A stretch of DNA of 64,000 bases from contig JAYWIR010000032.1 in assembly GCA_036172245.1 (NCBI GenBank), positions 124,001-188,000 of the forward strand. Direction: 5' to 3'. The position numbers were made by a program, and so were the translations under genes. The notes under the pieces are model-generated. The model made no database searches. It saw only the letters and a list, made by a program, of their open reading frames with translations, and was not told the origin of the DNA. The stretch's first letter is position 1, and every line of letters begins with the position of its first letter. Shown here in pieces: positions 20,874 to 64,000 of this stretch. This stretch comes from Raillietiella orientalis. Lineage: Eukaryota.

Positions 20874-20874
20874 A

Positions 20875-34400: not shown

Positions 34401-34507
34401 AGAAAAATCGGCAACCTAACTTTGGAACCGACAGCAGGGCAGGTAAGGAACTCCCGGGCAAGGAAGGTAGCCGTAGCGCTTGCAGTCGATCTCCATAAGG
34501 CGTTCGA
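31419..34507 (+). mobile_element. LINE subfamily 'Y': 5' end, ORF1, EN (deleted at ~33295) and RT up to DLHKAF
   Basis: 5' motif agacggacatgtttttcc; AAGYKSSLVYQVGNLFDG; SDH; KAPGEDG; stops at VDLHKAFD. Confidence 0.9.
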
Positions 34508-37274: not shown

Positions 37275-37355
37275 GCTGGCCGATCCTGACTGCCAGGCTT
37301 GCTTCTCGGCTCCCGCTTTGTATTCCGCCAGCCTGCGGATGTCGGGGGTCCTGGG

Positions 37356-38288: not shown

Positions 38289-38710
38289 TACTGCAGGAAA
38301 GATGACGGTGTGTGGGAACCGGCCTCTTCCGAGGCGGGTGAGATGACCATTAGGGTTTCAGCCTCCTCAGGCACCTTGGGTACCTTTCCGGCTTCAACCC
38401 CCTCCATCTCCTCCGTGTCTGTGCGTGGTGGTCTCTCGGGTGACGATTCCCGGGATTCTCCTACGCTCATGGCACCCTCGCAGTCGGAAGTGATCTCCAC
38501 GCCTTCGACCTGGAGAGGGGCTTTCCGTGGCTTGCTGGACTTCCTTCCAGCCTTCCGGCGGGGTGCCGCGGAGATGGAAACTTGGTTTCCGGCCTGCGCT
38601 TCAGGGTCGGAAGTTACCGACTCCTCGGTGGAGGCCGTACGGCTAACTGCCTTTTCGCCAGCCTTGTAGGGGTCTGGCTGCAACGTGGCAGCCAGCTCCT
38701 CCGCCGCACG

Positions 38711-39952: not shown

Positions 39953-42877
39953 GTTTCCACCCGGTCACGCCAGGGCGTTTCTTAAAAAAACACTTTACAT
40001 TTGCGGCACTAGGCCCCGCTACGGTTAATATTTCGTGGGACCTGCTGAGAAGCCGGTTCTGAGGCCAGGTTGTCCTTCTCGGCAGCGGAGGGGAAAGAAG
40101 GTAAAACAAAAAGAAAAATAAATGAAATAACAAAAAGAAACTATTTGGGGATCCGGGAAGGGATCACAACCTGCTAGAGGAGAAGACCATTCTTTCCAGG
40201 ATGCCCTCGAGGTCCCTTGTCATAGCTCCCAGATGGGACCAGCCGATCGCGATTCGCAGGTAGCGACCCGCGTGTACGATGCGCTCCCTGTCGCTGCTTT
40301 CTCTGTTGGCTGCGTTCCAGGCGGCCACAATCCCTCGGAGGCAGCAGAGCGCTCCCAGGGTAGAGGCTGGTGGCAGGGCGTTTTGCACGAAGAGGAGTCA
40401 CAAGTTCTCTGGGATTACTGCCGACCGACATAGGGAGGGTCGTAGCATAACGTTCCCACAAGGGCCGGAGGGCAGCGCGATCCACTAACAGATGGGGGAG
40501 GGATTCCTTCTCCCCGCACACTGCACAGTTCTGTCCCACGTTCCACAACGTCAAATGATGGCGGCGCGCGTTGCAGGGAATACCCTAGTGCAACAACAAC
40601 ACCGCCGTTTCCTGCCACTTCAGAAGGAGGGTGGATGCGTCTCTAAGTAACGGAGGCCACTCTAGGTCATCCACCGGGATGCCAAGCAGCTCGCCTTATC
40701 CGTATTTCATGGTGGTGAACGCTTGGGTTTGCGGCGTCTGCTACTTCCCTCATTGTCCACCCGCTTAGATCCTTTTCCTTGCCCGCTATCCGGTAGGAGA
40801 CTTGCCATCTCGACTTTCGGCTGTTTTTAGGCGCCCTTCGTAGGAAGGGCAGCGCCGTGGCCAGTGGGGTCGTCTCCGCCCAAGTGCTTCTGGCGAGACA
40901 CACGATCATATTCTGCAGCGTTCAGCGGGTGTAGATGCCGGTGCGGAGGCGGTTGCAAAATTCTCCACTGATGTGTTTCAATTTGCCCAAGTTCTAACTG
41001 TTTCTTCAAGCCATGAGGTGGATTTCGCGGGGCTTCAGACCATCCACCCGTTGTCCTTCGCCAGGGTGGCCATGCGTCCCAGGAGAAGTCCGCATCTTCT
41101 TATTTTCCGGCCAAGGCACAGAAGAAAGGACGCGAGTCCTTCAATCCTGGACACACGTCTGACGAGAAGGTGGACTGGAACGCACCAAGGGGTGTTCCAC
41201 ATTTTCGCTGCGATGGCTAGAGTGCGCCACCGCACCTGTGTTTCCATTCGCTCCATCGTCAGGACGCTAAGATCTCCGTCCCGACGTGGAGCGCACAAAT
41301 CCTTCAAAGGCACACAAGGGCTCCCGCCGCTTCACAGGGCGATGCGTTGGAGGTCCTTTGTTCTTTTTTTCAGTTAACGGGGTACGAAGCAAACAAAAAG
41401 CAGAGGGCGAAGAAGGGGGGCCGCGAACGCGTTCCACACCGCGGCGCGTTCCGGCGAGGGAAGCTTGCCTTCCAGGAACGGGCCGATCGCTGACTCCACT
41501 TTTTGTAGACGACCTGACCAGGCTTCTGACAGGCTTAAGTCCCCCAACGGAACGCATAGGTACTTCAAGTACCTCTCTGAGGGTATCCCCAAGCGTATCC
41601 AGTCAGGCCGTCCGACCCACGTCGCATCAACCGCTACCACCGATGACTCCGCCTTATCTACACGTAGTCCAGTCCCGGGGCTCACCAGATCGAAGAAATC
41701 CTCGACTGCGGCTGCCAGGCGGACATAGGCAAAAGGAGCAGAAGATCATCGGCGAAAGCCGCTACGGCCGGCGTACCTCTACACGAGCTTGACAGGGCAT
41801 CCAATGTCATTCTGTATGCTCTCAGCACCACTTTTAAATAGGTGCTAAAGAGCAGGGGACTCAGGCTGTCGCCCTACCGGATGCCGCGCCTCACTGGCAC
41901 GCAAAACAAGTGCTGTGCTCTGAAAAACAAGTTAATGATCGCTTTGCGCTAGCAGGCGCGCAGGTAGACCGTTAAGGTGTCCGCGAAGCCCATGCGATTC
42001 AGGAGCTCCAGAAGGAGTTCCTGGTCCACGCCATCGAAAGCTTTGTGCAGATCGACTGCGATCGCTAGAGCCAACTTCTCTTCCCGGTCGTCCCTTACTT
42101 GCTGCGCTGGCGCTCCTACGTCAGGTTTGTTGACGTTACGTTATTTTTCCAAATTTTTCTCGCGTTGCACATGGAACCATGTGCTGGCGAACAACAGGTT
42201 CGCTTCCATGCTTCGCCCGGGAACAGCGTACGTCTGTTCCGGGCTGACGAAGCTGTCAGCTACCTGTCCCAGTCGCGCAGCCCACAGTCCGGCCAGCAGC
42301 TTGGCGTCTGTGTTCACTATCGTGATCGGACCCCAGTTGCTTAATTTCCTGAGGTCTCCTCCCTTAGGGAGGAGCCTCACATTGGCTGACCGAAACGAGG
42401 AAGGAACATCGCCTTCGTCTCGAATCAGCGATGTCAATTTGAGCTCCCAGGGGGTCAGCTCTGCGACGAACCACTGGAAGAATTCTGCCGGCAGGCCGTC
42501 CTCCTTTGGCGCCTTACGCCTTTTGAGCCTTTTAATCAGGGTGATGATTTCCTCAGTCGTAAAAGGCTCGTCGAGGCTTTCTTTCTCCTCCTCATCTATG
42601 GCCGGGGCTCCATCTGGAAGCAGGAGCTGCGGAGCGTTCCACTCCGCAGGTGCCCTTGCGTATAGAGAGAAGTAAAATCCGCGCACGAAGCGACGTATCG
42701 AAGCCGGCTCCGAGTGTTCCTGGTCCAAATCGTCCAGCACGCTGGGCGGTCCGGTTTGCCATGCTTGACGCTCGGCCACGGCTTTGTATTCCGCCAAGCG
42801 ACGAACGTCACGGGTCCTTGCGAAACGACGGGCGTGCAAATACGCCCTTTCGTTGCGGGCTTCTTCTCCAAATCCCC
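39953..42877 (-). mobile_element. LINE 'X' (RT to 3' end); outermost host of the nest, continuing at 58619-58715
   Basis: KAPKEDG, NWGPITIVNTDAK, DLHKAFD and FADD; 3' terminus rc AAGAAACGCCCTGGCGTGACCGGGTGGAAAC; breaks at RGFG. Confidence 0.9.
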
Positions 42878-44179
42878 TCTGTGGAGAGAGGACGTGCTTT
42901 TCCTGCGCTCCGCCTGCGTGGCAAGGCGAGTGATTTTTTCTTGAGTGGTTTGTGCGTGCACATCGTCGGTGTCCGATGGCAGCGTTGCCAGAGGACAGCG
43001 CGATCGATGTAGGCGTGGAAGAGGCTTGTTCGTCCCTAAGCCCACTGGATAAGGGGCATCCGCCCCGGAATCGTCCCCGGCGACACCGAGGTCATGGAGC
43101 GCCATGGTGGCCGCGCTTAGCTTGGAAGCCATGGCCGAGATGGAAGCCTACAACAAAGCGGCGTATAAACCCTCGCTAGTCTACAAGGTAGGCAACCTTT
43201 TCGATGGGCGAACTGCACGCGCCTTTACGAAGGCGCTGCAGAACGCCAATATCTTCGAAAAAGATCTTCACGGCCTCTGCGTCCTCAGCGGCGGGCAGCG
43301 GGTCGAGGTGGTATGCAAAGATATCACCTTGGCCCGACGCCTGATCACCGACCCGCTGATCGTTGATGGTCGGAAGATCTTGCCGGTGACGATGGACCGC
43401 TCGGTGGTGGTCCGTCTCATTGGGATCTCCAGTCGCATGACTAGGTCAGCGGTTCGTGAACAGTTGCAAAAGCACGTAGAAGTGCACGCGTTGTGGCCGA
43501 AGTCCACGATTTGCCAAGGATACAATAGCCTTTTCGGAGGTTAAGCTGCGGTGCAAAAAAGGATGGTGCGCTTCCCCACGAGCTGAAGGTCTATCAAGAA
43601 GCGGTGGACCTCCAGAACGTAGGGAGACCCCAATTTTGTGGCTACTGCAATGCAGTAGAGCATCTACGAAAAAGGTGCCCGAACATTGTGTGCCACCTAT
43701 GCGGGGAAAAGGGTCACATTCGGCGCGTGTGATCCAAGCGCCCCACCCCGGTGCCCCCTGCCGCCAAAAAGGCACAGGGAAAACGTGGAAAGCTGGTAGA
43801 AAGACCAGCTCGCGAAAATGGCCATTCCCAACTGCCAGCCTCCCTTCCTCCCGTACAGACGTCGGAGGAAAGAGCTCCCGTGAACGCGGAAATGGAGGAG
43901 AGTTGGCAGCTGGTTCAGGCCAGGGAAGAAAAAAAAAGAAAGTGATGCCAGAAGAAAAGTCGGAGAAGAAAACTGCCAACAACAAGAAAAAAGCTGCGCC
44001 GCTTTCAAGAAAAAAACAACTCCGCGAATGCTCGGTGGCACTAAAACGCTTAGCCGTTCCTGCCGAGGCCGCCCGCGGAAATGTTCAGCAAACAGCTGAT
44101 ACGGACGCGATGAATACTCGCGTGGACGAGCCCATTCTACGTTTAGAGGGTGAGACGCGAGACTCGCGCGCCGACAGCC

Positions 44180-44295
44180 AGGACGCCGCGCTCGATAAAG
44201 TCGCGGAGGAGCCCGCGGCAACGGTCGCCGCTGGCGAAGACGCGGCCTTCGAGAAAGCGGCGGAGGAGCTCGCAGCAACGCTCGCCGAGCGCGAA
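44180..44295 (+). repeat. In-frame 57-bp tandem duplication in the ORF1 tail
   Basis: DAALDKVAEEPAATVAAGE-DAAFEKAAEELAATLAERE; single-copy in the related ORF1 at ~22140-22200. Confidence 0.7.
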
Positions 44296-47248
44296 ACCCC
44301 GTCGCGCAAGGGCGTACGCAGGTCGGCTCCGAAGAAGGCCCCCGCAGGTGAGTGCGACCAGGGGGCCGGAAGCGGATCCTCATCCTCGGAAGCACCCCCA
44401 GGAAGTCGGGACGCAAGTCCCAGAAACCCAGAAGGCGCCTCCCCTCCACCAGCGAGGAGGAGAAGGCGGAAGGAAGCGGCAGCGTGGGAATCCCGGAGGG
44501 GGAACACCCACGTTCGCAAGTTGTCGAGTCGGCCACCCCCATGGAGGAGGGTGAGCAGGGGGCTGAAGTCCTCCGTGCAGTCGCGGAATTAGAGCAGCCG
44601 GAACCCATGGAGGAGGGCGAACAGGTAGGCGCGACTCCACCTGCGGGTGATCCGGCCGACGCGCCGGCAATGATGGAGGAGGAGGAACAGGTGCCTTCAG
44701 AACCTGTCCCTCCTCCCCCGCCACCTAGCTTCCCGCCCCAGCAGGTGGCGGACGCCGCATCGCCGTTTTCCCAGGACTAACACCTGGGCTCGCCAGTCGC
44801 CTTCGGATTCGCGCGGCCTGTTGGAACGTCAACGGGCTGCGCGACGACGGCAACAGGCGAGATACGGCCGACACCCTGCGTGAGCTCGACCTGGCACTGC
44901 TGCAGGAGATCCACGTGATCACCGCGGCAGACGCCCAGGAGATCGAGACGATCGCGGGGGGTCGGTTGTATTGGCAATGCGGCCTTCGAAACACCTGCGG
45001 GGTCGCTTTCTTCGTGAAGCCGGCAATCGACGCTGCCGTAAAGGGCGTGCGGTTTGATGACGACGGTCGGATCGGTCAGCTGATTCTTAGCTGGTCCGAG
45101 TCGATTGACCTAATCGTCACAAACGTGTATGGCCCCAGCAGCAAACAGTGGTACCGCGACCGCACCAGGCTGTTGGAAACCCTGATGCGCGACTGGCTGG
45201 CGGATACCAATGTGCGAAAGGCTCACCTGATAGCAAAAGATTCCAATCGAGTGCGGACGTGTTCTTCTTCGCTCTCGTCTCCGTGCTTTCATCCGCTTCA
45301 TCTTGTCGTCGTACATTTTGACGACGATGTCGACCCAACCCGAAGCTACTGAAGTTGGAGGAACAGCATCCGGATCTGCAATCGCGGAACCGACGGCCGC
45401 CTCCACTTCGTCTTTCTCGCCAATAGAGAGGAGGTTTGCTGACGTTGCTGCCACAGAAGTCGTCAAAGGGAAACCACTCGACGAGTCGGAGTTGCGGACA
45501 TACGTAGCCCAAGGGTATGAACCTGCTCTCTGATATAAGGTGAGTGGTTTTCTTTCTGCGCGCGACGGGAATCAGTTCAACGATGAACTGACCCGTGTTG
45601 GCGTGCGGGAGGAAAACCTCCTCGCCATTATGCCCGTAAAGGATATGGGCTATTCCAAGGTGCGTTGCAAAGACGCTGCACTTGTGCAACGCTTGCTGCG
45701 CACCCCGTTGTCGATCCGTGGCCAGAAGGTCTTCCCGGCCGCCATGGACGACTCATTTGAGGCGGAGATTTTCGACATCGAGTCGGAAATCTCGGATATT
45801 GATATTCGGAACGCGTTGGCGAAATTCGCCACGGTTTATGCGCAGTGGAGGGTGCGTAGCAACCTCAAGGACTTCCCGTCCATACACAGCGGAGTCGCTG
45901 GAGTCCGGCTTACAATGCCGGACCGCCGTCTGCTGTGAACCAAACATTACGTGAAAGACACGGTCGTTCACCTGTGGTTCGTGGGCAAAGTAAGAACGTG
46001 CGAGTAATGCGGGAAGGAGGGCCATTGTTTGGATAAATGCCCCTCTGTAAAATGCCGTTATTGCAAACTATCCGGGCACCAATTGAAAAATTGCCCGGAT
46101 CTTTTGCGAAAAAAGGCAGCCGCGGAGCTCCATCTTAAAAAACAAAGCGCGGATCAAAAGAAAAAATCTTCGAAAAACCTGGAGACCCCACGGCAGAAAT
46201 TCCGAAAAAACGCGAGGCGCAATGTCGCCCCAAAGCAGCAGGAAACCTCGCACGCGAAGCCCTGCGCGCCCCCTCTCGCGGCAGTGGAGCCGCAAAAGAA
46301 AGGGTGCGGGGAATCCGGGACAATGGTATGTCCCCCTGGGCGCAATAGCTGTCCTTCCCAAGCACTCCCAACTCTTTCGGAGTTCGAGCAACCGGCGGAG
46401 ACGTCAATGGACAACGGCGGTAAGGACACTTGCAGTACCGTCAGATCCATTCCTTCACCTCCTGCAGTGGCTGAGAAGCCCAAATCAGGTAAGAAGGGTT
46501 GTGCCGTGTCGACCTCGAAAGTCGGCAAAACAAATTCCGCGTCGCGATCCAAGACCGCGAAAGCGGAGAAAAATCTCACGCCGTCGCAGTCGAAGAGCAA
46601 GCTCTCGACTGGCGCGGATGCCATGCCAACGAAGGGATTAAAAGCCCTCCCGAAGGCAGCGTCCATGACGAGCGTGTCGGAGCCATCGAAACTGCTCCCG
46701 TTTAAAGACGCGGAGGGCTTCAAAGATGGCAATGGAACACAATCTCCATTTACGGCGCCACGCGAAGTGAGGAACCGTAATGAAGTAAAGAAGACTTCCG
46801 CAAAGGTCCCTCGTGCAACTGCGCGTGAGCACGCTGAAAACGTGCGCGCCGGGAAAGCAGCCGTCACCAAAAGCGATGCTCTGGAGACGGAAAAAGACAA
46901 CAGGACAGCTGTCAATCCAGCAGAACCTGTCACTACTTCGCGGAAGGCCGAAACTCGATCCACCATGCGCCGGTCGGACACCGAAATGGATGCCGTTCCG
47001 ATCACCGAGACGAGGACAACTCGATCGAAAGCGTGTGCGCGCCGATTGAAAGTAGGCAGCCAGGCAACGCTCGCCGCGAAGCCACGCGAAGTCTCCACGA
47101 ATCCCGACGGGGTTAAGCCTGGCGTGGAGGCATTACATGCATGCAGCACGACGGAGGACGGTGGCGACCGTCCCCTCCAGCCAGTCGTGCTGCTCGCCGT
47201 CTGCTCGCCGGATAAAGCGAGCAAAAAGCCGCCACCTTCCCAGCAGTA

Positions 47249-48719
47249 ATGCATGGAATCGCGCCTTCTCGTAGTCTGTCCGTAACGTGTTGGAACGCGA
47301 GCGGACTACAGAACGACGAGAAGAGGCGATTAGTAGCCAACGCCCTGCGCCCCTTTGACCTGGCGCTCCTGCAGGAGATTCACGTAATCTCCGACGAGCA
47401 GGCAGCCGAAATCGAGGAGCGGGCAGGCGGAACGCTACATTGGCGGTGCGACGGCGCACATACGTGCGGCGTAGCGTTCCTCGTAAGAGAAAAAATGGCG
47501 GAAGCGGTGCGTAGTGTTCGTTTCGATGACGACGGACGGATAGGCCAGCTTGTCATCAAGAGGTCCGAGCCCATCGATCTCGTCGTTACGAACGTCAACG
47601 TGCCGAGTGGCTCTTGCTACCTCGAAGGAAGGTTAGCTTTCTTTGGTGAGGTGCAAAGCCACTGGCGAAACTACTTTGGCTTCCAAGTGGCGCACCTCGT
47701 CGCTGGGGACTTCAACGTCCGCCTGCTCTACGACGATTTGAGCCGCCCGAGGGAGCGCGCGCTGCCCATCGAGATGTGCGCGTCCGTGCACGCCGCCAAC
47801 TTGATGGTCAGCGAACGTGAAATGGAAAGATCGCTCGATCACGTTTTCCTCCATGAAAATGCATTCGCGTGTGGGTAGGAGAGGAAGATTGTTGACTAGG
47901 CTTTCTGACCACCACAGGTTGGAGTTTGAGATCCTTCCGCCAGGCAGGGGGCCTCCGTTGCAAAACTGGAGGATGCAGGCGGATTGGCTCAGCCAACCGG
48001 AGGCTGCGGAGCATCTACGTGGATACCTCCGAGGCTTTGCCATTCAAGAACTTGCGGACTGGGACGATCTCAAAAGATCTGTCCGCGAGTTCTGTTGCCA
48101 ATTCCCCTTGCACCGGCTTCCACGCGGTTTCGGAGAGGGCGTGGCCAACAGTAGAGACTTTCTGCAGGCCCGCACGTTTTCTAGACGCGCGGATTTCGAA
48201 CGTCCCGCGGAGTACAAGGCGAGGGCGGAGCGCCATCTCTGGCAGTCCGGAGCAGCATGCTTGTTGGACGACAAGGGCCAGGAAAGTTCGGCCCCAGCCG
48301 AAGTACGTCGCATTGTGAGACGCTACTTCTCCTCGCTGTACGCGGAATCCCCGACGGAGGATATTCTTTCTGAGATACTCCTGTCTCAGTATGCTCGTGT
48401 TGTCGGCGAGGAGAAACGCGAACGTCTTAACGAGCCCTTCACGGCGGATGAACTTTCGTCCGTTATCGCTGTGCTGAAGAGACGAAAGGCGCCAGACGAG
48501 GATGGGCTCCCTGCAGAGTTTTATCAGTGCTTTCAAGTGGAGCTCATTCCCTTGATGATGAGACTCGCGACGCTGATGAATGAATCCGGGAATTTCCCGG
48601 ATTCCTTCCGCTCAGCGAAGGTGCGTCTCCTGCCGAAAGCCGGAGACTTGCGTCAACTTAACAACTGGCGTCCGATCACCTTAGTGAACTCGAACGTCAA
48701 GTTGTTTTCCAAGCTGTAA
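47249..48719 (+). pseudogene. ORF2 of Z: endonuclease and start of RT (frameshift at ~47860)
   Basis: CWNASG, LLQEIH, AGDFN, LDHVF, SDH, KAPDEDG and NWRPITLVNS. Confidence 0.9.
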
Positions 48720-50337
48720 GTCGCGCGGTTAGGAAGTATCGCGGAATCTGTGGTGAGCCCGGAACAAACCTACGCGGTTCCGGGACGATCCATGGAGGCG
48801 AACATCCTTTTCGCGCGTACATGGATGCAGCTGCAGGAAGTTGTGGCGCAGCAAAGCCAGACTGCTGCGAAAGTCACTGCCGCAGGCAAAAAGAACAGGA
48901 GCCGACGGCAGGAGGGAGCGCCAGGTGCCTTGGCGGTCGCGGTCGATCTCCACAAGGCGTTCGATTTTCACCCGGATTTCTCCGAGTCGTTTATTAAAAA
49001 AATAAACTTTGTAAGCAAATTATTAATGGCTGTGGCGATGCTCCAGCCAGAAGCTGGGAACCACGGCGCCTGCCAATTTACCGGTTTCTAGACCGGTACG
49101 GTCCACCAAGGAAGAAGGGGAAAGCGGAAAAACAAAAAAAACTAAACAAAACAAAAAAAAAAAAAACAAAGGATGGGAGGGCACGGGAAGGGATCACTGT
49201 TGCTGCTGGAGCCGCATCATCCCTCTCAGGATGATGGCAAGCTCTTGTTTGTTCTGAACATCCAGGTGGGGCCATCGCGACACCCTCCTCAGGAATTCGG
49301 AGGCGCACTGGATGGCTTTCTGATCGCTAGGTCCTCCCGTCGCCGTGCTCCAGGCGGCGACGATCCCACGAAGGCAGCACAAGGCTGCTATCGAGGACGC
49401 TGGCCGCAGGGCGTCGGCAACGAAGAAGGCTTTTAGTGCGTCCCTGGGGTTGCTGCAAGGGATACCGATTGCCGCGGCAAAGCGGAACCAAAGGGGCCGA
49501 AGGGCAACACAATCCACTAGGAGGTGGGGGAGGGACTCCCGTTCCCCGCACCTTACACAATTGGGATCCACCGCTCCCCAGGTCCAGTGGTGTCGACGGG
49601 CGTTGCAGGGGAGTACCCAGTGCTGCAACAGGAATGCCGACTCTTGCCATTTTAGGGGAGGATGGAAGTGTTCATAAGAATCGGGGGCCACTTCAGATGT
49701 TCAATCGCAACATCCAGCAGCGCTCCCCAGCGCAGAAGTCCATTAGGAGGCGTACTCGGGGTCGCAGCATCAGTTAGCTGGCCCGTCTTCCACTCTCTCT
49801 GCTTCTTCTCCTTCCCGGAGATTTTTATTGTAACCTCCCACTTCGCCGCAGCATCGCTGTCCTGATGTTCCACTAGGGAGTCCAGCGCAGCAGCGAGGGG
49901 GGTTCTTCCTGACCACGCTCTCTTCTTGGGATCCTCCAGGATCTCACGGAGCGTGCCACTTCTGTAACACCCAAACAGGAACCTTCGTTCCTGATGGGAG
50001 GGTTGCATGCCGAACTGTCCCCACGTACGAACGGTTTCCTGAAACCAGGGACTACCGTTCGCGGGAAGACAGGTGATCCATCCTTGATTTTTCCTTGCCA
50101 GCGCAGCCACCCTCCGTAGCTGCAGTCCCCATCGGTTGACGCGGCGAAGAAGTGCAAGAAAACAAGTCAGTCCCGTCTTGCCAATGTCTTGCTGAAGTAG
50201 GAGACGTGCAGGGACGCACCAACAGGTGCACCACAACTCCGGCACAAGTGCCAAAATCCGGAACTGGAGATGCAGCTCCAGCCGCTGCAATGTCAGGAGG
50301 CCGAGACCACCGTCCCGACGCGGAGCGCTCAAGTCCT

Positions 50338-51228
50338 TCAAGCGGAGTCGGGCCCTCCCGCTGCCCCAAAGGGCGATACGGAGGAGTTCCTTCGTCCGCT
50401 TTTTGATCCTCTCTGTGGGGGGCAAACAAAAAGCAGGGAACGGAGGAGAGGAGCCGCGAACATGTTCCAAACCGCGGCCCGTTCAGGCAGAAAAAACCTG
50501 CCGCCTCGGAACGGGCCGATAGCCGTCTCTACTTTTTGAAGGCAGCCGGACCACGCTTCCGCAGAGCAGTAGTCCCCTAACGGCACATCAAGGTACTTGA
50601 AGTACCTCACCGTGGGGATCCCCAAACGGACCCAGTCCTGCTGCCCTGGCCACGACGCACCAACTGGCATCACGGACAACTTCGCCCTGTTCACCGTAAG
50701 CCCGGTTCCTCGATTCAGCAGGTCGAAGAACTTCTCGACCGCCGAAGCCGGGGTGGACATAGGGAGCAGTAGCAGGAGGTCGTCCGCATATGCTGAAACC
50801 GCAGGCGTTCCGGCGCATTCATGTGGCAGTTGCGGCAGAGTTTCCCTGTACGCTTTCAGTACCAACTCAAAGTTGATACTGAAAAGCAAGGGGCTCAGGC
50901 TGTCTCCTTGCCGGATCCCACGTCGCACCAACACGCCGTGAACAGTATGCCCGCTGAAAGTAACATTGATTAGCGCATCGCGCCAGCTAGAGCGCAGATA
51001 GGCCAATAATGAGGCCGGGAAGCCCAAGCGTTCCAAAAGCTCCAGCAGGAGATTCTCGTCGACGCTGTCGAATGGTTTACGCAAGTCGACAGCGACCGCA
51101 GGTGCTCCCTCCCCCATCCGACCATCCGTCGCATGACTGACGGACTCACCGGAATTCTCGGTGCGCATCAAGCCCCTTGCGTGTTGGAGCTCTAGCCAGG
51201 TGGAAGCGTGCAACAGGTTCGCCTCCAT
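50338..51228 (-). pseudogene. ORF2 RT fragment with an intact YADD
   Basis: DLRKPFDSV, GIRQGDSLSPLLF, SAYADDLL and FKYLDVPLG. Confidence 0.92.
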
Positions 51229-51250
51229 GCTTCGCCCAGGATTCCCGGCA

Positions 51251-52968: not shown

Positions 52969-55951
52969 TGCGGCCTGATCGACCTCCACCACACACGAAG
53001 CCTACACCTAGGGACGGTTTCCGGCACGAGGAGCACCGAGGAAACACGTCCGCTCTAGCCGACGTAAAGCTTTCGACTGCGTAAACCAGAAACTGCTTTT
53101 GGAGCTTATGTAACGCCTTGGGTTCCCGGCTCAACTCCTGCTGTATTTGCGCGCGTGCTGGCGCCACGCGCTAATTCGCATCACTTTTAGCGGCTGCCGC
53201 GTGTATGGTATTCTTGTTCGTAGGGGCATCCGACATTGCGACAGCTTAAGCCCGTTGCTCTTCAGATTCTTCTTTGAGTTCGTGCTAAGAGCATACACGC
53301 TGACGCTGTCTCACTTGCCAAGCTCCTGACCGGGAACGCCTGCCGTGGCCGCCTACGCTTATAACCTGCTTCTTCTGCTCCCCATGTTCACCCCGGCGTC
53401 CAGTGTCGAGGATTTCTTCGACCTGATTCTTCGAAGAGCGGGCGTGAGCGTGAACAGAGAGAAGAGCGTGGTCGTTCCTGTGGGTACGTCGTGGGAGGGG
53501 CAGTCCGACTGGATCCGCCTGGGGATCCCCACGGGCGGGTACTTTAAGTACCTTGGCGTTTTGTTGGGCGCTTTCGACGCAGCCGAAGCGTGGGCGGACT
53601 GTCTTCAGAATGCAGAGTTGGCCATCAGCCCGTTCTTTAACGGTAAGTTTACCTTCCATGAAACACCATTGTGGAAGCCATTGAAGCGACCATTTGAAAC
53701 ACCTTTGTGGCCCCCCTCCTCCGTCCCCTGTTTTTTGTTTTGGACCCTTCCTATGCGGCGAAACAGCGGGCTAAACGCCTGCTCAGGCACGCTCTTTGAG
53801 GTCCGGCGAGATCCAGGATCCGCCTTAAAGATTTGTTAGCTTCACTTCGGGATGCTGGTTTGGGTATCCTGACGATGGAGCGAATCGGACTGCAGGTGCA
53901 GTTCCGACTGCTGGCACTGTGTGCCCAGCTATGGACATCTCCCCTGTGTGTGTCAGCCCGCATTCTCCTGCGGAGATGCGCCGGCAGCGGAGAATTTCTC
54001 TCGCTTTTAACGGGCACTCAATACAGGAAGTGGGGTTTCGGGTTTTCATTGCGGCAGTGGACCGCACTTCTGGAAGCTCAATCATGGATCTCCTGCCGCC
54101 AAATGAACTTTGAAGCTTGGCGGCAGGAGTCCGTTGAATCCTAAGCGGCGTTCCAAGGAATACGCCCTGAAGATCTTCGCCCCCTTCGCCAATTTTTTCC
54201 ACGATCCTTGGAAGAAGTACTGCAGGACAAGGTGAAGTTTTCTACCCTGGCTGCCACGCCTCTTGCCGCAGCGCTGTCTGCCCTCAGGGCAAGAAACGAC
54301 AGTTACCAACAGGCAAGGTGGGAGGATTCCTCCACGATAGCGGGAAAAACAAAACCACTTGGCGCCTGGAAGACGAATGAGTTGGCAGACGCCGCCACTC
54401 CTCGTGTTACTGCAAAGGGACTCCTCCGGTAAGCAGAAGAACTTGCTGTCACCGCCGAAGAACTTGTAGTCCCTCCACAGTGTATTGACAGTTCGCTGCT
54501 CCCTCTTGCTTAGAAACAAGCCGTGCTGGTTTTCGTTCACTGGGGTTTTCAGTGCAACGAGCGTTGGCATCGTGACTCCGGGGGACTTGCGTCTGCAAAC
54601 TGCGTTCGGTGCGGATCGATGGAATTGATTCCGCACCTACTTCTAGACTGCGGTCTCCTACAAGGACTGTGGCGTAGGCTGGCAACAGCACTAATGCATC
54701 CCGTGGACACCGCAAGAGACTTGCTCCGACGATTCTTCACGCCGTGCGGGCTGTCACTAAGCGCAAGAATTGCAACCGTCGGTTGCATACGCGTGATAGT
54801 TTCCGTCCACCAGGCGTTGGTAATCAACGGAGAGCACCAAGAGGTAATCAGCAAAGCATCCTTCTACATTAGAGCATCCGCTAGATGGCCTCATTTGACA
54901 GAAGAGACAAAGAGGAATCTCGCCGCAATGCACCGCCGGTTTACACACGCTCAGCAGCGGCCAACCCGGTGATCATTGCAATACCCTCCATAAACTAATT
55001 TTTTATTTTCTTTTCACACCCGCGTCCCCATAGGCTCCGGAACATTTTAGGTGCCCATCGTATAAATCCCCTTGAGTACGGAGCCTATCCAAAAACCCGT
55101 TACCCCTCCCTCCAGTTTTTGATTTTTGTTTGTTTCCCTTCATTCCTTCCACGCTTCGAGCGGTTTGTTTACCAGGCCTGCGTGCCGGTAATTTTTCCAT
55201 GTTCTCTGTCGTTTTGTTGGTTGAAAACATTCTCCCTAACCAGTTTATAATTATTAATAAACGCCCCGGCGTAACCGATTGATAAATTTCAATCTCCGCC
55301 TGCTAACAGGTGAGCCCGAAACACAAGAGTACGCGATGATCGAGTTGTTCGCCGCCATGAGTGCGCGCAACTTGTTCGCGGGTGACAGGGTAATGGTCCG
55401 CAGCATCGACCACGTCTTCCTCGACGCTGACCTGTGTTCACGGGTCCGCAAACGGGAGAAGATTGCCTCCACGCAGTCGGACCATTCCCGGCTAATTTTC
55501 GAGAAGCGGTCTCGCGACAATGGACCGCTATCCAGGGACTGGCGTCTCCCCGAGGTCTGGAAGCGCCTCTCAGGTGCAAAGGTACACCTTCGCGAATACC
55601 TGAGAAGCGTCACGCTCCGGAATCCCCAGGACTGGGACCTTTTTAAGGAATCGGTCCGCAAGTTCTACGAGCTGTTCCCCCTGGATCGCCTGCCCTCCCG
55701 GATTTGGCGAGGGTGCTCGCAGCCATCGAGCCTATTTAAAGGTTCGTCGTTACGAGAGAACCTTTAATGTCCGTCGCTTGGCCGAGTACCGCGCTGGGGC
55801 CGAACGCCAAGCCTGGCAAGCCGGGTCGGCCAGCCTGCTAAGCGATCAGGGTCGGGAATGTTCGTCCCCGGCGTAGGTACGGCATCTCGTGCGAAGTTTT
55901 TATTCATGCCTCTACGCAAGGACGCCTCCGTAACAAGATGCCTTTCGGCGG

Positions 55952-56932
55952 TTGCTCCAGGATGGTGCCCCTGCAATAGGGGAAGAGGAGTCGGTAAGCC
56001 TCGACGAGCCTTTCACTACCGGCGAAATTCTCGCCGGTATCAAAAGGCTCAAGAGGCGTAAGGCGTCAGGGGAGGACGGCTTGCCCTCGGAGTTCTTTCA
56101 GCGCTTCGCGGAAGAGCTTGCCCCCTTGCTGCTCGTGTTGACAAGGCTGATCCGAGACGAAGGCGATGTTCCCGCCTCGTTTCGATCAGCCAGAGTGAGG
56201 CTCCTTCCGAAAGGGGGGGACCTCAGGAAATTGCACAACTGGCGTCCGATCACCATCGTGAACACGGACGCCAAGTTGCTAGCAGGGCTATATGCTTCGC
56301 GTTTGGGGCAGGTGGCAGAGTCCATAATTAGCCCGGAGCAGACCTATCCTGTTCCCGGGCGAAGTATGGACGCCAACCTCTTCTTCGCAAGAACGTGGAT
56401 GCACCTGCAAAGGAGAGAAAAGAAAGGGAAAGGGAAAATCGGCAACTCCACATTGAGTCCGCCAGCGGGGCTGAGAAGGGACCCCGGGGCGGGGAAGGGG
56501 GCCCTAGCGATCGCAGTCGATCTCCATAAGGCGTTCGACTGTGTAGACCAGGAGCTCCTCTTAGAGCTCCTGGGTCGTATGGGCTTCCCACTCTCCTTGA
56601 TATGCTACCTGCAACCTTGCTGGCTGAATGCGATGATTACCGTCTCTTTCAGCGGGCACAAGGTGTCTGGCGTGCCAATGCGGCTGGGTATCAGGCAGGG
56701 CGATAGCTTGAGTCCCCTGCTCATCAGCACCTACTTTGAGTTGATGCTGAGAGCCCACATGGTGACTTTGGCCCCCTTGCCGAGCTCGTGCCCCGGCACG
56801 CCCGCCGTAAGTGTTTATGCCGAAGATCTTCTGCTCCTGTTACCTATGTCCATCCCGGCGAAGGCGGTCGGAGATTTCTTCGACCTGCTCAACCGCGGGA
56901 CCGGACTGCAGGTGAACAGCGCGAAGTCGTAA
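55952..56932 (+). pseudogene. ORF2 RT domain of Y
   Basis: KASGEDG, NWRPITIVNTDAK, DLHKAFDCV, GIRQGDSLSP and YAED (mutated YADD). Confidence 0.92.
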
Positions 56933-57569
56933 GTGGTGCCAGTTGGTGCGGCGTGAGCAGGGCAGCAGGACTGGGTCCGTTTGGGGATTCCCACGGGGAG
57001 GTACATCAAGTACCTTGGTGTGCCGTTGTGGGACTTCTCCCCTGCGGAAGCGTGGTCCAGCTGCCACCAAATAGTCGAGACGGCGATCGGCCCGTTCCTG
57101 GAAGGCAAGTTTCACTTGCCGGAACGGGCCGCGGTTTGGAACGCCTTTGCGGCCCCCATCCTCCGCCCCTTGCTTTTTGTTTGCCCTGCCCCAGGAGTTG
57201 TTAAAATAGGACGTAAGACCTCCTCCGCATCGTCCTTTGGGGCAAGGGGAGGCCCCGATTCCCTTTGAAGGACCTTTGCGCTTCCCGACTTAATGGCGGA
57301 CTTAACCTCCTGACGCTGGAGCGCCTGGAGAAACAGCTGCGATATAATACCCTCGCCATCGCAGTGAAGATGTGGAGCATCCCGTGGTGCATTCCGGCTC
57401 GCCTCTTCGCCAGTCGTGTGTCCCGGTGCGAGGGACTCGCGTCTTTTCTTCTGTGCCCCGGCCGGAAGATCAGAAGATGGCATGGGCGCATGGCATTGTT
57501 GGTCATAAAGAACAGGTTTGCTGCCCCGCCAACTCCTCCGCCTGGCTGGAGGAGAACATCGGAACGTGG

Positions 57570-58406
57570 GCAGTGGTGAATCAGAAAATCCACATAACGT
57601 GGAATCGTCTCCGATGCAGCCATTACGCCCGCTGCATTCTGAGGAATCTCCTGGAGAATCCAGCTAGGAGCACGTGGGCAGAGACAACTTGCCTGGATAC
57701 GGCACTGCTTTTCCTGAGAAGGGTGCTTCACAGCAGTCGGACGTCAAGGTGGCAAGCCTCCTTCTTCATCGAGGGACATGAGAAGAGAATGAGCGGCTGG
57801 AACATGGGTCAAGTGGCGGACGCCACGACCCCGAGCGCCCAGCTGCGAGGACTAAGAAGATGGGGAGAGCTGCTGGCCATCCCTATGGATGTGCTGAAGT
57901 GGCCTCCGCTTCTTCAGGAATCCAGGATCCTGCCCCTTAAGTGGAAAGAGTCGGCGTTGCTGTTGTTGCATTCGGGTTTACCCTGCAACGCACGCCGCTC
58001 CCACTGGACAAGAGGAGTTGTGGATCCTGCGTGTGTCAGGTGCGGAGAGCGGGAATCGCTCTCCCACCTTATTGTGGACTATGCTGCCCTTCGTCCCCTT
58101 TGGGAACGGTTTAAGACGATCCTCGGTCTCCCAACGGGCAGTTCCCCTAGAGACGTTCTTCGGCCCCTCTTCGTGAAGGACGCCCTGCAGCCAGCCGCAG
58201 CCCTTGCAGCCTTGTGCTGCGTCCGAGGCATCGTGGCGGAATGCAGCGACACCAACAAGGAAGGAGTGGGTCAACACGCGAGTGATGTCATCCCATATGC
58301 CCAACGCTTTTTGCGGAGAGCTGCTGGATGGCCCAAACTGGGGAATATACGGATGGACCTCGAGGGCTTCCTTCAACGGATGGGCCCTCCTCTCAGCGAA
58401 CAGTGA
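57570..58406 (+). pseudogene. ORF2 C-terminal region with a zf-RVT-like Cys/His motif
   Basis: LLHSGLPCNARR...CVRCGERESLSHLIVDY. Start is approximate. Confidence 0.8.
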
Positions 58407-58618
58407 TCCCTTCCCTGCCCTCCAACCTATTTGGTTCGTTTCCGTTTTTGTTTTTATTTTTGTTTTTCCCCATCCCCTTTCGCTGCCGGGGAGTGCCACG
58501 CCGGGCTGCGTCCCAGCGTCCCGGTAGGTCCCGTGTATAAGGCCATGAGCGGGCCTGGTACCGCGATTGTAGAGTTTGTTATGATTAATAAACGCCTCGG
58601 GCGTATCCGGGTGGCAAC

Positions 58619-58715
58619 TTTAAATCCCCGGGACAGGCGGTGCAAAGGGAAATCCTCGCAGAACTCGCGGACCGAGACCTTCATGAGGACCCAATCATCG
58701 AGATTGCGGAGCGTC
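58619..58715 (-). mobile_element. 97-bp sliver of host element X trapped between two insertions
   Basis: Translates as TLRNLDDWVLMKVSVREFCEDFPLHRLSRGF, the sequence expected immediately upstream of RGFGEEARNERAY at 42877. Confidence 0.88.
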
Positions 58716-58735
58716 GAGCGGACGTGTCTTTTCGT
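58716..58735 (+). promoter_or_regulatory. Conserved LINE 5'-terminal motif GAGCGGACGTG plus pyrimidine tract, a putative internal promoter element (also at 10826, 20875, 31419, 42886, 45249 and 53055 on -)
   Basis: The same motif sits at the 5' junction of seven otherwise divergent elements. Promoter function is inferred. Confidence 0.6.
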
Positions 58736-61338
58736 TGCTCCTGAGTTTCATTTCCGTTGGTGCTTGTGCGTGGTGTGGGTGGAGGATTAGGCAGCAATGC
58801 CTGATACCACCACCGATGAGCGGGGGCGATGACCTCATTGCCCCCGGAGGAGATTTAGGTGGAGGCTCCCGCATCAGTGGAGGCTCCCGCCAGCACTGAT
58901 GCGCCCCCGGCCCTACCCAGGACTTGGAACGCCGTGGCTGCAGCACCTACGCCAGCGGCTATGGCGGAAATGCGCGCTTACCTGGAGGAGGGGTATAACC
59001 CACCCCTTCTATATAAGGTAGGAAGTTTATATTCTCCCGAGAACGCGCGCGCCTTTTCGCAGGCGATGCGCGTACTCGGTGTACAAAAACAGGAGCTTCT
59101 GGCTATGTCCTTCAGAAGCGGGGTTCAATTTGTGGAAGTTATCTGCAAGGAGGCAACTCTTGCGCAGAGACTTCTGCGAACCCCCGTAATTATGGGCAGC
59201 CGGAGGCTTCTCCCAATTACTGAAGACCGGTCGGTGATCATTCACCTGGCCGGTATCACATTGCGGATGACGAAGGAGGCCGTCCGGAACGAATTAGAAA
59301 AATTTGCAACTGTCCACGCGCTGTGGGGAAAGCCTACTCTTTTTGTCCATTACGACGGGGTGCTTGGCGGCCTGGGTTCAGCGCGAGTGACGGTTCGCTA
59401 GGGATGTGAGTTTCCCCACAAACTCAACGTCAACGGTGAATCCGTTGACGTGTGGTACGTGGGGAAACCCAAGTTTTGCGGCTGCTTCAGCAGCTTTGCT
59501 CACCTTAAAATGAGGTGTCCTAGCGTGCAGTACCAGCAATGCAAACAAGCGGGGCACACCCGTCTGGTGTGCTCCCAAAACACAGTCCGCGTCGTGTCCG
59601 CGAAAAACGCGAGAAAGCGCGCGGCAAAAAAGAGAAAGAAGCTGTCAGCTCGTACTGCTGCTAAGGAGGTCACATCCTCCACCAAGGCGAAGGCCAGCCC
59701 CGAGACCCCACCGAAAAACGCCGAGAAGGTCGAGGGCGAGGGTCAAGAGCCAGGGTGGCAGAAGATCGATCCCAAGAACAACTCCCATAAGAAGGGAAAG
59801 AACGTGGCGAAACGGAGCGAAACCGCTCTGCGCCGCGAAAAAATTAAAAGCTGCTGTGTCGTTGTAGAGCGGATTCCCGCCATCGACGAATGCGGCGCTA
59901 AAGAACTCGCTGCTGCCCCTGCTCAACCCTCCGTTGACAAAGTCAACAAGCAGGGGAGCGAGGCGGCGGCGTCCGTCATCGAGCCCACGCTCGATGACGT
60001 CGCCTTCGAGTGCGCCGCGTAGGAGCTGGCTGCCTCGTTGCAGCCGGTTGCCCCCAAGGCTGGCAAGAAGGCCGTCAGGCGTCCGGCTTCCCCTCAGGAG
60101 TCGGCCACTTCCGACCCCGAGGTGAAGGCCGGAAACACAGCATCCATCTCCGCGGCACCCCGCAAAAAGGAAGGACGAAAGTCCACAATGCACCGGAAGA
60201 TCATCTCTCTCGACGAAGGGGAAGAGATGGCTTCCGGTAGCGAGGGTGCCATGAGCGTGGGAAACTCCCGGGACCCGTCGCCCGAGAGAATTACACTCTC
60301 GGACACGGAGGGTATGGTGAGGATGGAGGCTGAACAGGTACCCCATGCGCCTGAAGAGGCCTCCGTCCTCGTTCCGATGGTCCTCGTACCGATGGACCTT
60401 TCCTACACCTGCCCCGCGGCAGGTGCCGCGACGCCACTTTCCCAGCCATAATGCCGGGAATCGCCTCTCGCCGTCGCCTTCTGATCGCCTGTTGGAACGT
60501 GAACGGGCTAAGCGACGACGGCAAGAGGCGTGACGTGGCCGCCACCCTGGCATCCTTTTACCTGGTGCTGCTGCAGGAGATCCACGTGATCTCCGCAGAT
60601 CAAGCCCGGGAGATCGAACGGATCTCGGGTGGGCGGCTGTTGTGGCGTTGCGGCACCGCGAAATCAAGCGGTGTCGCCTTCCTGCTCCGACCAGCCATCG
60701 AGGCCGCAATAAAGGACGTTCGGTCTGATGACGCCGGTCGCGTCGGTCAGGTGACTCTCAGCTGGTCCGACTCAATCGACCTGGTCGTCACCAAGCTGTA
60801 CGCTCCTAGCGGTAAGGATGCGTTGAGGGCGAAGGCAAGAAGAGAATTCTACCTTTCCCGCGGACGCGATTGGCTTATCGAAGCAGGTGTTCGCAAAGCG
60901 CACCTGATCGCGGGTGATTTCAATCTGCGCCTGCTTTCAGATGAGCCGGATACACTGAACGACCGCGTCAACGAGTTGTGCGCAGAAATGAACACGCGCA
61001 ACTTGTTGGCCGGGGACACGGCCATGAAAAGCAGCATCGATCACGAGTACCTTAATCAGCACCTATGCTCTCGGGTGGGCAGGCGCGGCAAGGTACCATC
61101 CGAGTTGTCGGACCATGGTCGGATGATGTTCGAAGTGCGTCCGCGCGACAAGGGCCCCCCCTCGTCAGCGTGGCGTCTGTCAGAGGACTGGCTGAAGTTT
61201 CCCGACGCGGCGGAGCACCTCCGCGCGTTTATTCGGAGCTTCAGGATGCAGACACTTCAGAACTGGGACCGCCTCAAGCGGTCGGTCGAAGAGTTCTGCG
61301 ACCAGTTCCCCCTGCATCGCCTACCTGAGGGATTTGGG
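58716..61338 (+). mobile_element. LINE 'V' 5' half (5'UTR, ORF1 58797-60451, EN 60451-61338), interrupted at EGF^G
   Basis: 5' gagcggacgtgtcttttc; knuckles; TAATG at 60449; WNVNG, QEIH, LYAP, AGDFN, IDH and SDH. Confidence 0.93.
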
Positions 61339-61370
61339 GTTTCCACCCGGGTACGCCCGGGGCGTTTATT
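61339..61370 (-). other. Conserved LINE 3'-terminal module AATAAACG plus stem-loop (also at 58587, 55256 and 30265 on +; 48965, 39953, 34508, 22868, 17928 and 11936 on -)
   Basis: AATAAACGC-CCCGGG-CGTA-CCCGGG-TGGAAAC, with variants at every 3' junction. Confidence 0.8.
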
Positions 61371-64000
61371 GTATAAAACTCTACAAGAAAACGTGGTACA
61401 AGGCCCTACTAACGGCCACACAGCACCGGACCTGCCGGGACGCCGGGACGCAGCCCAGCGTGACGCTCCTCGGCAGGGGAGGGGATGGGGATCAAAACAA
61501 ATTTAAAAATAAAAATAAAGGAAAACAAAAAGAGTTTGGAGGGAGGGGAAGGGATCACGTTCCACTTAGAGGAGGGTCCATCCTTCGCAGGATGCCCTCT
61601 AGGTCCATCTTCATGTTTCCCAGATAGGGCCATCTCGCTGCTCTCCGCATGAAGCAGACCGCATACGGGATTACATCCCTCAAGTTGGCATCCACTCCTT
61701 CGTCGCGAATGTCGCTCCATCCCGTCACGATGCCCCGGATGCAGCAGAGGGCTGCGAGGGCTGCGGCGGGCTGCAGGGCGTCCCGCACGAAGAGGGGCCG
61801 AAGAACGTCTCTGGGCGCGCTGCCCATTGGGAGCCCGAAGGTCGTCCCGAACCGTTCCCACAGAGGTCGGAGGGCAGCACAGTCAACTAGTAGGTGGGGG
61901 AGCGATTCCCGCTCCCCACACCTGGCACACTCAGGCCTTACACTCCCCCGCGTCCAGTGAAAGCGGCGCGCGTTGCAGGGTAGACCCCAGTGCAACAGCA
62001 GCAGCGCCGACTCTTGCCACTTCAGGGGAAGAAGCCTGGATCCTATCAGTATTGGGGGCCACTTCAGGTCATCCGTCGGGATGCCGAGCAGCCCGCCCCA
62101 TCTACGAAGTCCACGAGGGAAAGCACTCGGGGTCGTGGCATCCGCCAGTTCTCCCATGGTCCATCCGCTCATCTTCTTCTCCTTGCCTGCGATTCGGCAG
62201 GAGACTTGCCACTTTGGCTTGCGGCCGCTTGTTAAAGCCCTCCAGAGGAAGGGCAGGGTCGAAGCTAGTGGGGTGGTCTATGCCCACGTGCTCCTGGCGG
62301 TACACTCCAGAGTAGTCCGCAGTGTGCAGCGGGCGTTGGGGCCGAATCGCAGGCGGTTCAAGTCCGGGGAAGTCTGGAGGTTCAGCTTGGCCCACGTCGC
62401 AACTGATTCTTCCAGCCAGGCGGAGGAGTCGGCGGGGCTGCATACCGTCCAGCCGTTGTCTCTGACCAGGGCTTCCATGCGTTCAACAAGAAGGCCGCAT
62501 CTTCTCACCTTCCTGCCGGAGCACAGAAGGTACGACGCGAGTCCTTGCGTCCTGGACACACGGCTGGCGAGGATTCGGGCCGGAACGCACCAAGGGGTGC
62601 TCCATGACTTTGCTGCGATGGCGAGGGTTCACCATCGCAGCTGTATTTCCAGGCGCTCCAGCGTCAGGAGGCCGAGACCGCCGTCCCGACGAGGAGCGCA
62701 TAAATCATCCAGAGGCACACGTGGCCTCCCGCTGCCCCAGAGGGCTATGCGGAGTAGGTCTTTTGTCCTCTTTTCAATGTCACGGGGGACGAAGCACACA
62801 AAAAGCAGGGAGCGGAGGATGGGAGCCGCGAAGGCGTTCCACACCGAGGCCCGTTCCGGCAGAAGGAACTTGCCTTCCAGGAACGGGCCGATTGCCAACT
62901 CTACCTTCTGGAGACGACCTGACCAGGCTTCTGCGAGGCAGAAGTCCCCCAACGGGACACCCAGGTACTTCAGGTACCTGGCCGTGGGGATCCCCAAGCG
63001 GATCCAGTCAGGCCGTCCGACCCACGTCGCACCCACCGGTACGACCGACGACTTCGCCTTGTTTACCCGCAGTCCAGTCCCACGACTTAGCAGGTCGAAG
63101 AAATCCTCGACTGCGGCTGCCGGGGCGGACATGGGCAACATGAGCAGAAGGTCGTCGGCGTATGGTGCTACGGCGGGCGTGCCGAGGCACTAGCTGGGCA
63201 GGGCAGCCAAAGTCACCCTGTACGCTCTCAGCACCAACTCAAAGTAGGTGCTAAAGAGCAGGGGACTGAGGCTATCGCCCTGCCGTATGCCCCGCCGCAC
63301 CGACACGCCGTACACCTGTTGGCTGGAAAAGCAGATGTTAATTATGGCGTTGCGCCAGCAGGAGCGCAGGAAGGAGAGAAGGGAGGGTGGGAAGCCCATG
63401 CGACCCAGGAGCTCCAACAGTAGCTCCTGGTCAACGCAGTCGAACGCCTTATGGAGATCGACCGCGATCGCTAGGGCCCCCTTCCCAGCCCGGGTGTCCA
63501 TTCCCAGCCCAGCTGGCGGCCCCAAAGTGGGGTTGCCAATCTTTCCGCCAGTTTCATTCAGGCAGCGTTGCACATGGAACCATGTGCTCGCGAAGAACAA
63601 GTTGGCATCCATACTTCGCTTGGGAACAGCGTATGTCTGCTCCGGGCTAATTATGGAGTCTGCCACCTGTCCTAGACGCGAAGCTCACAGTATAGCGATG
63701 AGCTTGGCGTCCGTATTCACAATTGTGATCGGACGCCAGTTGCCTAGGGATCTCAGGTCTCCTCCCTTCGGGAGGAGCCACACACGGGCTGACCGAAACG
63801 AGGCGGGAACGTCGCCTTCGTCTCGGATCAGCCCGGTCAACTGAAGCACCAGGGGTGCCAGCTCTGCCGCGAAACATTGAAAGAATTCCGCAGGCAGGCC
63901 ATCCTCCCCTGGCGCCTTTCGCCTCTTGAGCCTTTTAATACCGGCGAGAATTTCACCGGTAGAAAAAGGCTCGTCGAGGCTGATCTTCTCCTCCTCCCCT
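61339..64000 (-). mobile_element. LINE 'U' (Y-like), RT to 3' end, running off the window; inserted antisense at GF^G
   Basis: DLHKAFDCV, GIRQGDSLSP, YADD region, KYLGVPLG and CARCGERESLPHL; 3' rc AATAAACGCCCCGGGCGTACCCGGGTGGAAAC. Confidence 0.93.

Follow-up and report, generated by a model that had tools for sequence, protein, structure and literature searches.

How does one long interspersed nuclear element (LINE) come to lie inside another, and that one inside a third, to a depth of several levels? The question is raised by a 64,000-nucleotide stretch of the Raillietiella orientalis genome (GenBank assembly GCA_036172245.1, contig JAYWIR010000032.1, positions 124,001 to 188,000; hereafter the window), in which six elements, designated X, Y, Z, W, V and U, are nested. 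Judged by their sequences, they are LINEs of the L1/Tx1 type, that is, retrotransposons that lack long terminal repeats (LTRs) and have an apurinic/apyrimidinic (APE)-type endonuclease. An earlier note, made from the letters of the window, described the nest and its order and overlooked the central point, namely, that the target site is fixed for each family. We put a probability of about 0.8 on the reading that sequence-specific targeting of conserved motifs in the second open reading frame (ORF2) of sister LINEs builds the nest. Fixed site and strand, target duplications, nest order and hosts more diverged than their guests are direct observations; from them we infer that the endonucleases are sequence-specific.

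Family-specific target sites in ORF2

The genome assembly (210 Mb, 491 contigs) was searched with the ends of the elements, the flanks of the best matches were taken (the window's own copy excluded), and each junction was located on six aligned native copies, mutually 53–78% identical. In each search, the best 40 of 231–3038 candidates were scored, and 29 of the 39 listed were used (30 of 39 for V). The element sits at the site and on the strand of its family in 131 of the 175 sampled copies, and a further 20 stand head-to-tail beside another element. All sites are in ORF2. Z enters its hosts in sense orientation, at the GDFN motif of the endonuclease. The other five families are antisense to the host: W is found at DLHKAFD of the reverse transcriptase (RT), Y and U at RGFG in the linker, V at LRNLQ, about 80 bp upstream of RGFG, and X at HWT in the zinc finger. 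For Z, 26 of 29 copies map to one column and three lie behind another Z, while Y is found at one column (±1) in 20 of 29, behind the 3′ end of another element in eight and next to a short flank in one. V occupies its site in 24 of 30 copies (two are shifted by 11, one is at the site by eye, two follow another V and one flank is too short). W and U do so in 22 of 29 each. The W remainder comprises four copies behind another W, one shifted by 16, one in sense orientation and one without a LINE match though the target motif is present; for U, three are followed by a 5′ head, two are in sense orientation elsewhere and two have no match. X is at its site in 17 of 29, with one antisense copy nearby, three in sense orientation (one of them merely the reference's own margin) and eight without a match.

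Identity of the hosts to the closest among six references is 66–98%; these references are uninterrupted genomic copies (L200 for X, L220 for Y, L188 for Z, L196 for W, L181 for V, L198 for U), and empty target sites are present in all six. The inserting family itself serves as host in none of the 131 same-site cases (scored as best match to its own reference at ≥85%). Z and V clearly do without a target in their own ORF2; for the other families this is less clear. Combinations seen in the window recur elsewhere: at least five other contigs (C13, C31, C49, C67, C189) hold Y-3′ and X-5′ matches paired with the same spacing as in the window, and locus L201 has X with a Y-type 3′ end and without V. 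Older relatives in the window and its flanks occupy the same alignment columns (2822, 3256 and 4083–4094).

A neutral pile-up, in which LINEs with a regional (heterochromatin) bias gather in dead copies at any position, would agree with the extent of the LINE-rich region, from about 10 kb to past 114 kb, and with the preference of five families for small, repeat-rich contigs. Contigs numbered 60 and above, an estimated 12% of the assembly as interpolated from 43 known lengths, hold 19–26 of 39 rows for Y, Z, W, U and V, and 5 of 39 for the X 3′ end. This bias hints at repeat-rich unplaced DNA, without showing centromeres. A pile-up is nevertheless refuted, and hardly credible, as in 131 of 175 copies a single base and strand recur among some 11,000 possibilities.

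Further observations concern the same sites. A second, older W-family copy (window 34,496–38,710, 89% identical to L196) occupies the KAFD site in a Y-like host; the 1.4 kb at its 5′ end could not be located. Additional families have their ends at different antisense sites in the endonuclease (L011, about 9110–9150; L015, about 5160), so that more than five targets exist. Head-to-tail Z–Z, V–V and W–W runs sharing a single duplication are seen in L188–L190, L182 and L196, respectively. Y (L018–L047) has two head variants, and these go with two forms of the RGFG target.

Architecture of the nest

The nest was extended with the next 50 kb (L011, to which coordinates above 64,000 refer) and the previous 20 kb, and each piece was mapped separately onto the uninterrupted copies of its family (Table 1). 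All six elements named in the earlier note were recovered, with coordinates within about 10 bp, and the remainders it expected past 64,000 (5′ end of U, end of V, 5′ end of X) are there. Both halves of an interrupted element match a single reference about equally. The halves of Z fall on reference positions 9–3737 and 3727–5934, and those of V on 1–2673 and 2663–5599; here, as for U, Y and X, neighbouring pieces are contiguous and overlap by the duplication. The Y halves fall on 21–2539 and 2531–5939 (88.0 and 87.6%), and the X pieces on 5729–2800, 2807–2718 and 2729–96 (90.7, 88.9 and 89.1%). Reading frames continue across the W, Z and Y inserts, as claimed, with the rejoined codons seen at the junctions: Z reads DLHKAF before W and KAFDCVNQKLL after it, Y reads HLIAKDSN before Z and FNLRLLTGEPET after it, and at the RGFG sites FPLHRLSRGF resumes as GFGEEARNER and FPLHRLPEGFG as FGEGPRNE. 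The insertion order is fixed by the junctions, and neither of the outcomes named as evidence against it, halves from different subfamilies or missing remainders, was encountered.

Other statements needed correction. Target duplications had been reported for Y and Z only; both are real, and all six elements carry one, of 12 (X), 12 (Y), 9 (Z), 11 (W), 14 (V) and 11 bp (U), with 1, 2, 1, 2, 1 and 0 mismatches between the duplicates, respectively. The piece of X that separates Y from V is present and measures 94 bp including both duplications, not 97. The nest had been called four-level and fully reconstructable. Its order stands; the depth is greater, since X itself lies in a plus-strand host, Q, which makes the nest at least five deep, and reconstruction fails for W and for the levels outside Q, where it stops at junctions near 38,710 and 38,960. 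Five of the six nest members are full length. W is without about 1.5 kb of endonuclease and linker (reference bases ~1845–3366); the deletion, at about 51,240, lies between short similar sequences, and its junction is spanned by none of 39 other hits. Q clusters with other X hosts in the tree described below. Among the sequencing runs listed for the stretch there is none of RNA; one DNA run contains a small share of it, and the contigs of that run give coverage in short pieces, with no joint seen across a nest junction. No piece of the nest has a stop-free stretch longer than 413 amino acids, so the window copies all look dead.

One candidate reference for Y, L186, was dropped in favour of L220. 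In its interval 190–5930 the 5′ half is Y-type, at 94% identity to L220, whereas the 3′ half reaches only 77% to L220 and 84% to U; it is a possible recombinant of sister families.

Table 1. Components of the nest and a related older insertion; positions are those of the window, continued into L011 above 64,000
Feature	Position	Strand	Remarks
X body	39954-72534	-	between target duplications
Y body	42878-58617	+	between target duplications
Z body	45249-55285	+	between target duplications
W body	48965-53065	-	between target duplications
V body	58712-69918	+	between target duplications
U body	61340-67001	-	between target duplications
Older Y/U-like element	20873-22861	+	antisense at RGFG-homologous site of Z-like host (17.9-20.9 kb)
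Q, host of X	38965-39953	+	cut at zf-RVT HWT codons; resumes 72535 to ~73150
X 3′ duplication	39942-39953		
X 3′ part	39954-42865	-	RT, zf-RVT, 3′ untranslated region, terminal hairpin; 90.7% to L200
Y 5′ target duplication	42866-42877	+	antisense of X's RGFG codons
Y 5′ part	42878-45239	+	head, ORF1, endonuclease to GDFN motif; Exo_endo_phos; 88% to L220
Z 5′ target duplication	45240-45248	+	9 bp, on Y's GDFN codons
Z 5′ part	45249-48953	+	ORF1, endonuclease, RT to DLHKAF; 95.0% to L188
W 3′-side duplication	48954-48964	-	on Z's KAFD codons; agrees with Z family sequence
W	48965-53065	-	internal deletion at ~51240; 95.9% (ref 3-1845) and 94.2% (ref 3366-5652) to L196
W 5′-side duplicate	53066-53076	-	2/11 bases differ from Z; resembles head of other W copies
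Z 3′ part	53077-55285	+	92.7% to L188
Z 3′ duplication, then Y 3′ part	55286-58617	+	duplication 55286-55294; Y 87.6% to L220
X middle fragment	58618-58711	-	88.9% to L200 2807-2718; bounded by Y 3′ duplication (58618-58629) and V 5′ duplication (58698-58711)
V 5′ part	58712-61328	+	ORF1, endonuclease, linker to RGFG-type site; 94.8% to L181
U 3′ duplication, then U 3′ part	61329-64000	-	duplication 61329-61339; U pieces 94.3% and 96.0% to L198
U remainder	to 67001 (L011)
U 5′ duplication	67002-67012 (L011)
V 3′ part	67013-69918 (L011)	+	95.5% to L181
V 3′ duplication	69919-69932 (L011)
X 5′ part	69933-72534 (L011)	-	89.1% to L200
X 5′ duplication	72535-72546 (L011)

Evidence for independent insertion and the choice of site

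Identity among hosts and among guests was compared over 300 bp on each side, window copies included. Median host–host and guest–guest identities are 70 and 95% for Y (21 loci), 74 and 92% for X (18), 81 and 98% for V (10), 85 and 94% for W (23), 90 and 98% for Z (25, with two short-flank loci omitted) and 92 and 92% for U (23). In five families the hosts are thus far more diverged than the guests, which argues for independent insertion. When both parts are clustered at 97%, the loci reduce to 19 groups for Y, 17 for X, 9 for V, 21 for W, 15 for Z and 23 for U.

Targeting would work as follows. In a small radiation of LINE families, each would carry a sequence- and strand-specific APE endonuclease with a target of 9–14 bp within ORF2 of related LINE families. 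As in known APE elements, the endonuclease would make staggered nicks at the target, and target-primed reverse transcription would probably start from the 3′ hairpin without a poly(A) tail. Each new full-length copy would supply targets to other families, such that islands grow inward as nests, and the duplication would leave a target beside the new copy, such that they grow sideways as head-to-tail runs. Coding motifs under purifying selection would stay constant across hundreds of diverging copies, and insertion into LINE motifs would presumably be harmless to the host. The likely selective reason for the choice of these motifs is that they form a safe harbour, comparable to the multicopy RNA genes, or the transposons, into which other Tx1 elements insert. 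The endonuclease motifs NVNG, QE, Y, GDFN, DH and SDH are kept in all six families apart from a few copy-specific changes, and the most variable segments of the domain follow NVYAPSG and precede the DH motif. In vitro, nicking by the Tx1L endonuclease is almost wholly confined to its own target, and the hairpin loop of the L1 endonuclease was studied in the same paper (PMC1950540).

Several observations weigh against this reading. The samples are best-scoring matches, not random draws; queries with 5′ ends detect full-length copies only, and those for Y, W, U and X contained 8–15 bases of head or duplication (the V query was flank-free). X is looser than the other families, with eight of 29 3′ flanks lacking a LINE match and four copies elsewhere. 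U copies inserted in V show the same divergence as their hosts (91.6/91.6%). Across 24 Z loci, the host and guest distances are weakly correlated (r 0.36, p 0.03), and the 25 Z loci collapse to 15 clusters at 97%, so some of them are duplicates. Finally, the W 5′ duplicate follows the element and not the host: it carries a W-type head in both Z hosts seen (the window and L122), and eight of the eight Z- and Y-type sites read have a different sequence. DNA/RNA homology may therefore aid placement.

The U and Z figures would also fit an origin of the shared junctions by segmental duplication, or by gene conversion, from a few initial nests in heterochromatin, and so would the near-identical locus pairs (L039/L042, L110/L111, L101/L102) and the enrichment of most families on small contigs. 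The ten host bases that adjoin the duplication on its outer side, compared with one of each identical pair omitted for W and X and with three Z loci omitted, are 56% identical for Y, 64% for X, 80% for W, 83% for U, 88% for V and 96% for Z; the high Z value again suits copying. Relative to the next 50 bases, however, identity is raised in Z only, and not beside the junctions of Y, X, W and U. Guests that are 92–98% alike occupy hosts that are 70–90% alike, a single family occurs in hosts of several lineages, and both copies of the V duplication in the window agree with the variant of the host around them. No correlation between the distances of host and guest is seen for U in 18 V hosts (r 0.05, p 0.38). 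Copying is thus contradicted by the present data for Y, X, W and V and, as a general explanation, quite improbable: some loci are duplicates, but most are beyond its reach.

The W 5′ duplicates, which suggest homology-assisted 5′ joining, also bear on an alternative in which base pairing of target-like transcript ends to the host motif guides placement and the endonuclease is loosely specific. The two Y head variants tracking two target variants would fit this explanation, as would the endonuclease, which in a sequence alignment appears about 16 residues shorter than that of L1 across the hairpin-loop region. On the other hand, the duplicated bases of V, X and U vary by host, the 3′ ends have just 1–5 A without a constant target copy, and homology at the 5′ end comes after the first nick and cannot choose it. 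We therefore regard placement by base pairing as unlikely and prefer choice of site by the endonuclease.

Likewise rather unlikely is an extension of targeting to a network of mutual attack, in which the endonucleases would have been selected to cut essential motifs of competing sisters while their own ORF2 drifted out of recognition. Two of the targets, GDFN and DLHKAFD, are catalytic motifs. Own-site scores lie far below the used-site minimum for Z (3.5 versus 22) and V (9.9 versus 33.6); those of Y, U, X and W, though below the median, do not stand clearly apart from the values at used sites. How common the various hosts are confounds this score.

Relative ages and reciprocity

In a tree of 110 pieces (750 bp), the terminal branches measure 0.080 for X, 0.080 for Y, 0.051 for Z, 0.019 for W, 0.017 for V and 0.028 for U. 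Branch lengths thus broadly agree with the nest order, except that U and V are not separable. The earlier note further held that Y had entered Z near 20,875, that targeting was reciprocal and that the subfamilies were probably active in overlapping periods. The guest at that position is 71–78% identical to the Y/U references and its host 70–73% to Z, and the Z-like host sits on a separate long branch, apart from Z. We read the insertion as the same type of event among older relatives, not as Y into Z. Since other subfamilies are involved, overlapping activity does not follow from this example, plausible as it is. Reciprocity holds between lineages and falls away for Y and Z as named: V enters X and Y, and U, the sister of Y, enters V; W enters Z, and a W-family copy in L017 has received a Z-like element. 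The one candidate for a closed cycle of subfamilies (X>U>V>X) is not supported: it requires that the host of X in L087 be U, and this host is 87% identical to U over 1.5 kb and falls outside the U clade.

Element class and genomic setting

Native copies are about 5.6–5.9 kb long. In open frames, a domain scan finds Exo_endo_phos and RVT_1 above the cut-off and zf-RVT only below it; zf-CCHC is below the cut-off in two of four scanned ORF1 pieces of native copies, and two CCHC knuckles can be read in ORF1 of Y. The best solved relative is human L1 ORF2p (E 1e-44, as against E 4e-14 for R2). Among the database relatives of ORF2 listed, one metagenome protein is 69% identical, the other 119 only 22–32%, and no labelled Tx1 sequence is present; a search of the ESM Atlas returned generic RT clusters only. 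A short head and a motif resembling GAG(C/A)GGACGTG stand at the start of each family. The 3′ ends of all families have AATAAA, then a GC-rich hairpin with a stem of 5–8 bp and a family-specific loop, and the element ends about 30 bases past AATAAA. With L1 the elements share an ORF2 of APE endonuclease, RT and zinc finger, a separate ORF1 with CCHC motifs, target duplications and the absence of LTRs. A 3′ poly(A) tail, usual in L1, is absent: the longest A run is 1–5 in all 124 pattern-caught 3′ ends (64 distinct; loci overlap). With the Tx1 clade, of which they are candidate members, the elements share a target sequence specific to each family and an animal host. At kingdom level the host is placed by its Hsc70, for the most part 84–90% identical to matches from animals and 74–80% to those from plants; a plant or algal host was considered and dropped on this comparison. 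Identity as LTR elements was rejected, as self-comparison of the window shows no long terminal repeats; many matches of 63–83% are seen in both orientations.

GC content is 38–49% in the first 12 kb of the window and 50–65% thereafter. A 390-bp inverted repeat, 93% identical, is found at 1–390 and 2129–2518, and its arms, viewed with L016, resemble the ends of a larger inverted structure. Positions 2519–5013 are a reverse match (91%) to the 2.5 kb preceding the window. A 42-bp tandem repeat of 2.7 copies stands at the start of W ORF1 (52,834–52,945).

Relation to known target-specific LINEs

Target-specific LINEs of the Tx1 clade are already known: Tx1L inserts in piggyBac-type Tx1D, Tx1-Mar in Mariner-N4_AMi, Tx1-8_Crp and Tx1-4_AMi in LTR retrotransposons and Tx1-9_AMi in Harbinger elements, and Keno, Kibi and Koshi are further examples (PMC4494074). 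Like the families described here, these are animal APE-type LINEs in which sister families differ in their short targets, other transposons are among those targets and tandem copies share a duplication. In R. orientalis, by contrast, the targets are conserved coding motifs of close relatives, with five sites in one ORF2, the nests are multi-level and there is no poly(A) tail. Zepp of Coccomyxa and ZeppL of Chlamydomonas, which form L1 clusters (PMC3446292, PMC8226300), are likewise L1-type LINEs entering existing LINE copies in GC-rich nested clusters. Zepp, however, targets its own copies, its arrays are mostly 3′ ends and there is one cluster per chromosome. In R. orientalis insertion into own copies is not seen at the target sites, though head-to-tail neighbours do occur; the nest members are mostly full length and antisense, and clusters are found on many contigs. 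A conserved 3′ terminal hairpin is shared with stringent-type LINEs that have a 3′ stem-loop; unlike theirs, the hairpin here follows AATAAA, has the short stem given above and adjoins the target duplication (PMC3747384).

In our literature search, which covered neither subscription journals nor Repbase reports, we came across no description of LINE families that target coding motifs of their sisters. Further targets could be listed in the supplementary figures of PMC4494074, which lay outside the comparison, and the portions of bioRxiv 2025.03.28.645958 and PMC13534243 consulted contain nothing on target sites. What appears to be new is the use of coding motifs of sister LINEs as targets, which would add a target class for site-specific LINEs. 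LINE-only islands could grow from within, without regional chromatin cues. With target sites fixed, the nesting order is not readable as a neutral clock of family age. Six endonucleases with five targets of 9–14 bp, in elements that are 53–78% identical in DNA, constitute a natural series on how APE specificity changes, the question that remained after the loop-grafting work on L1.

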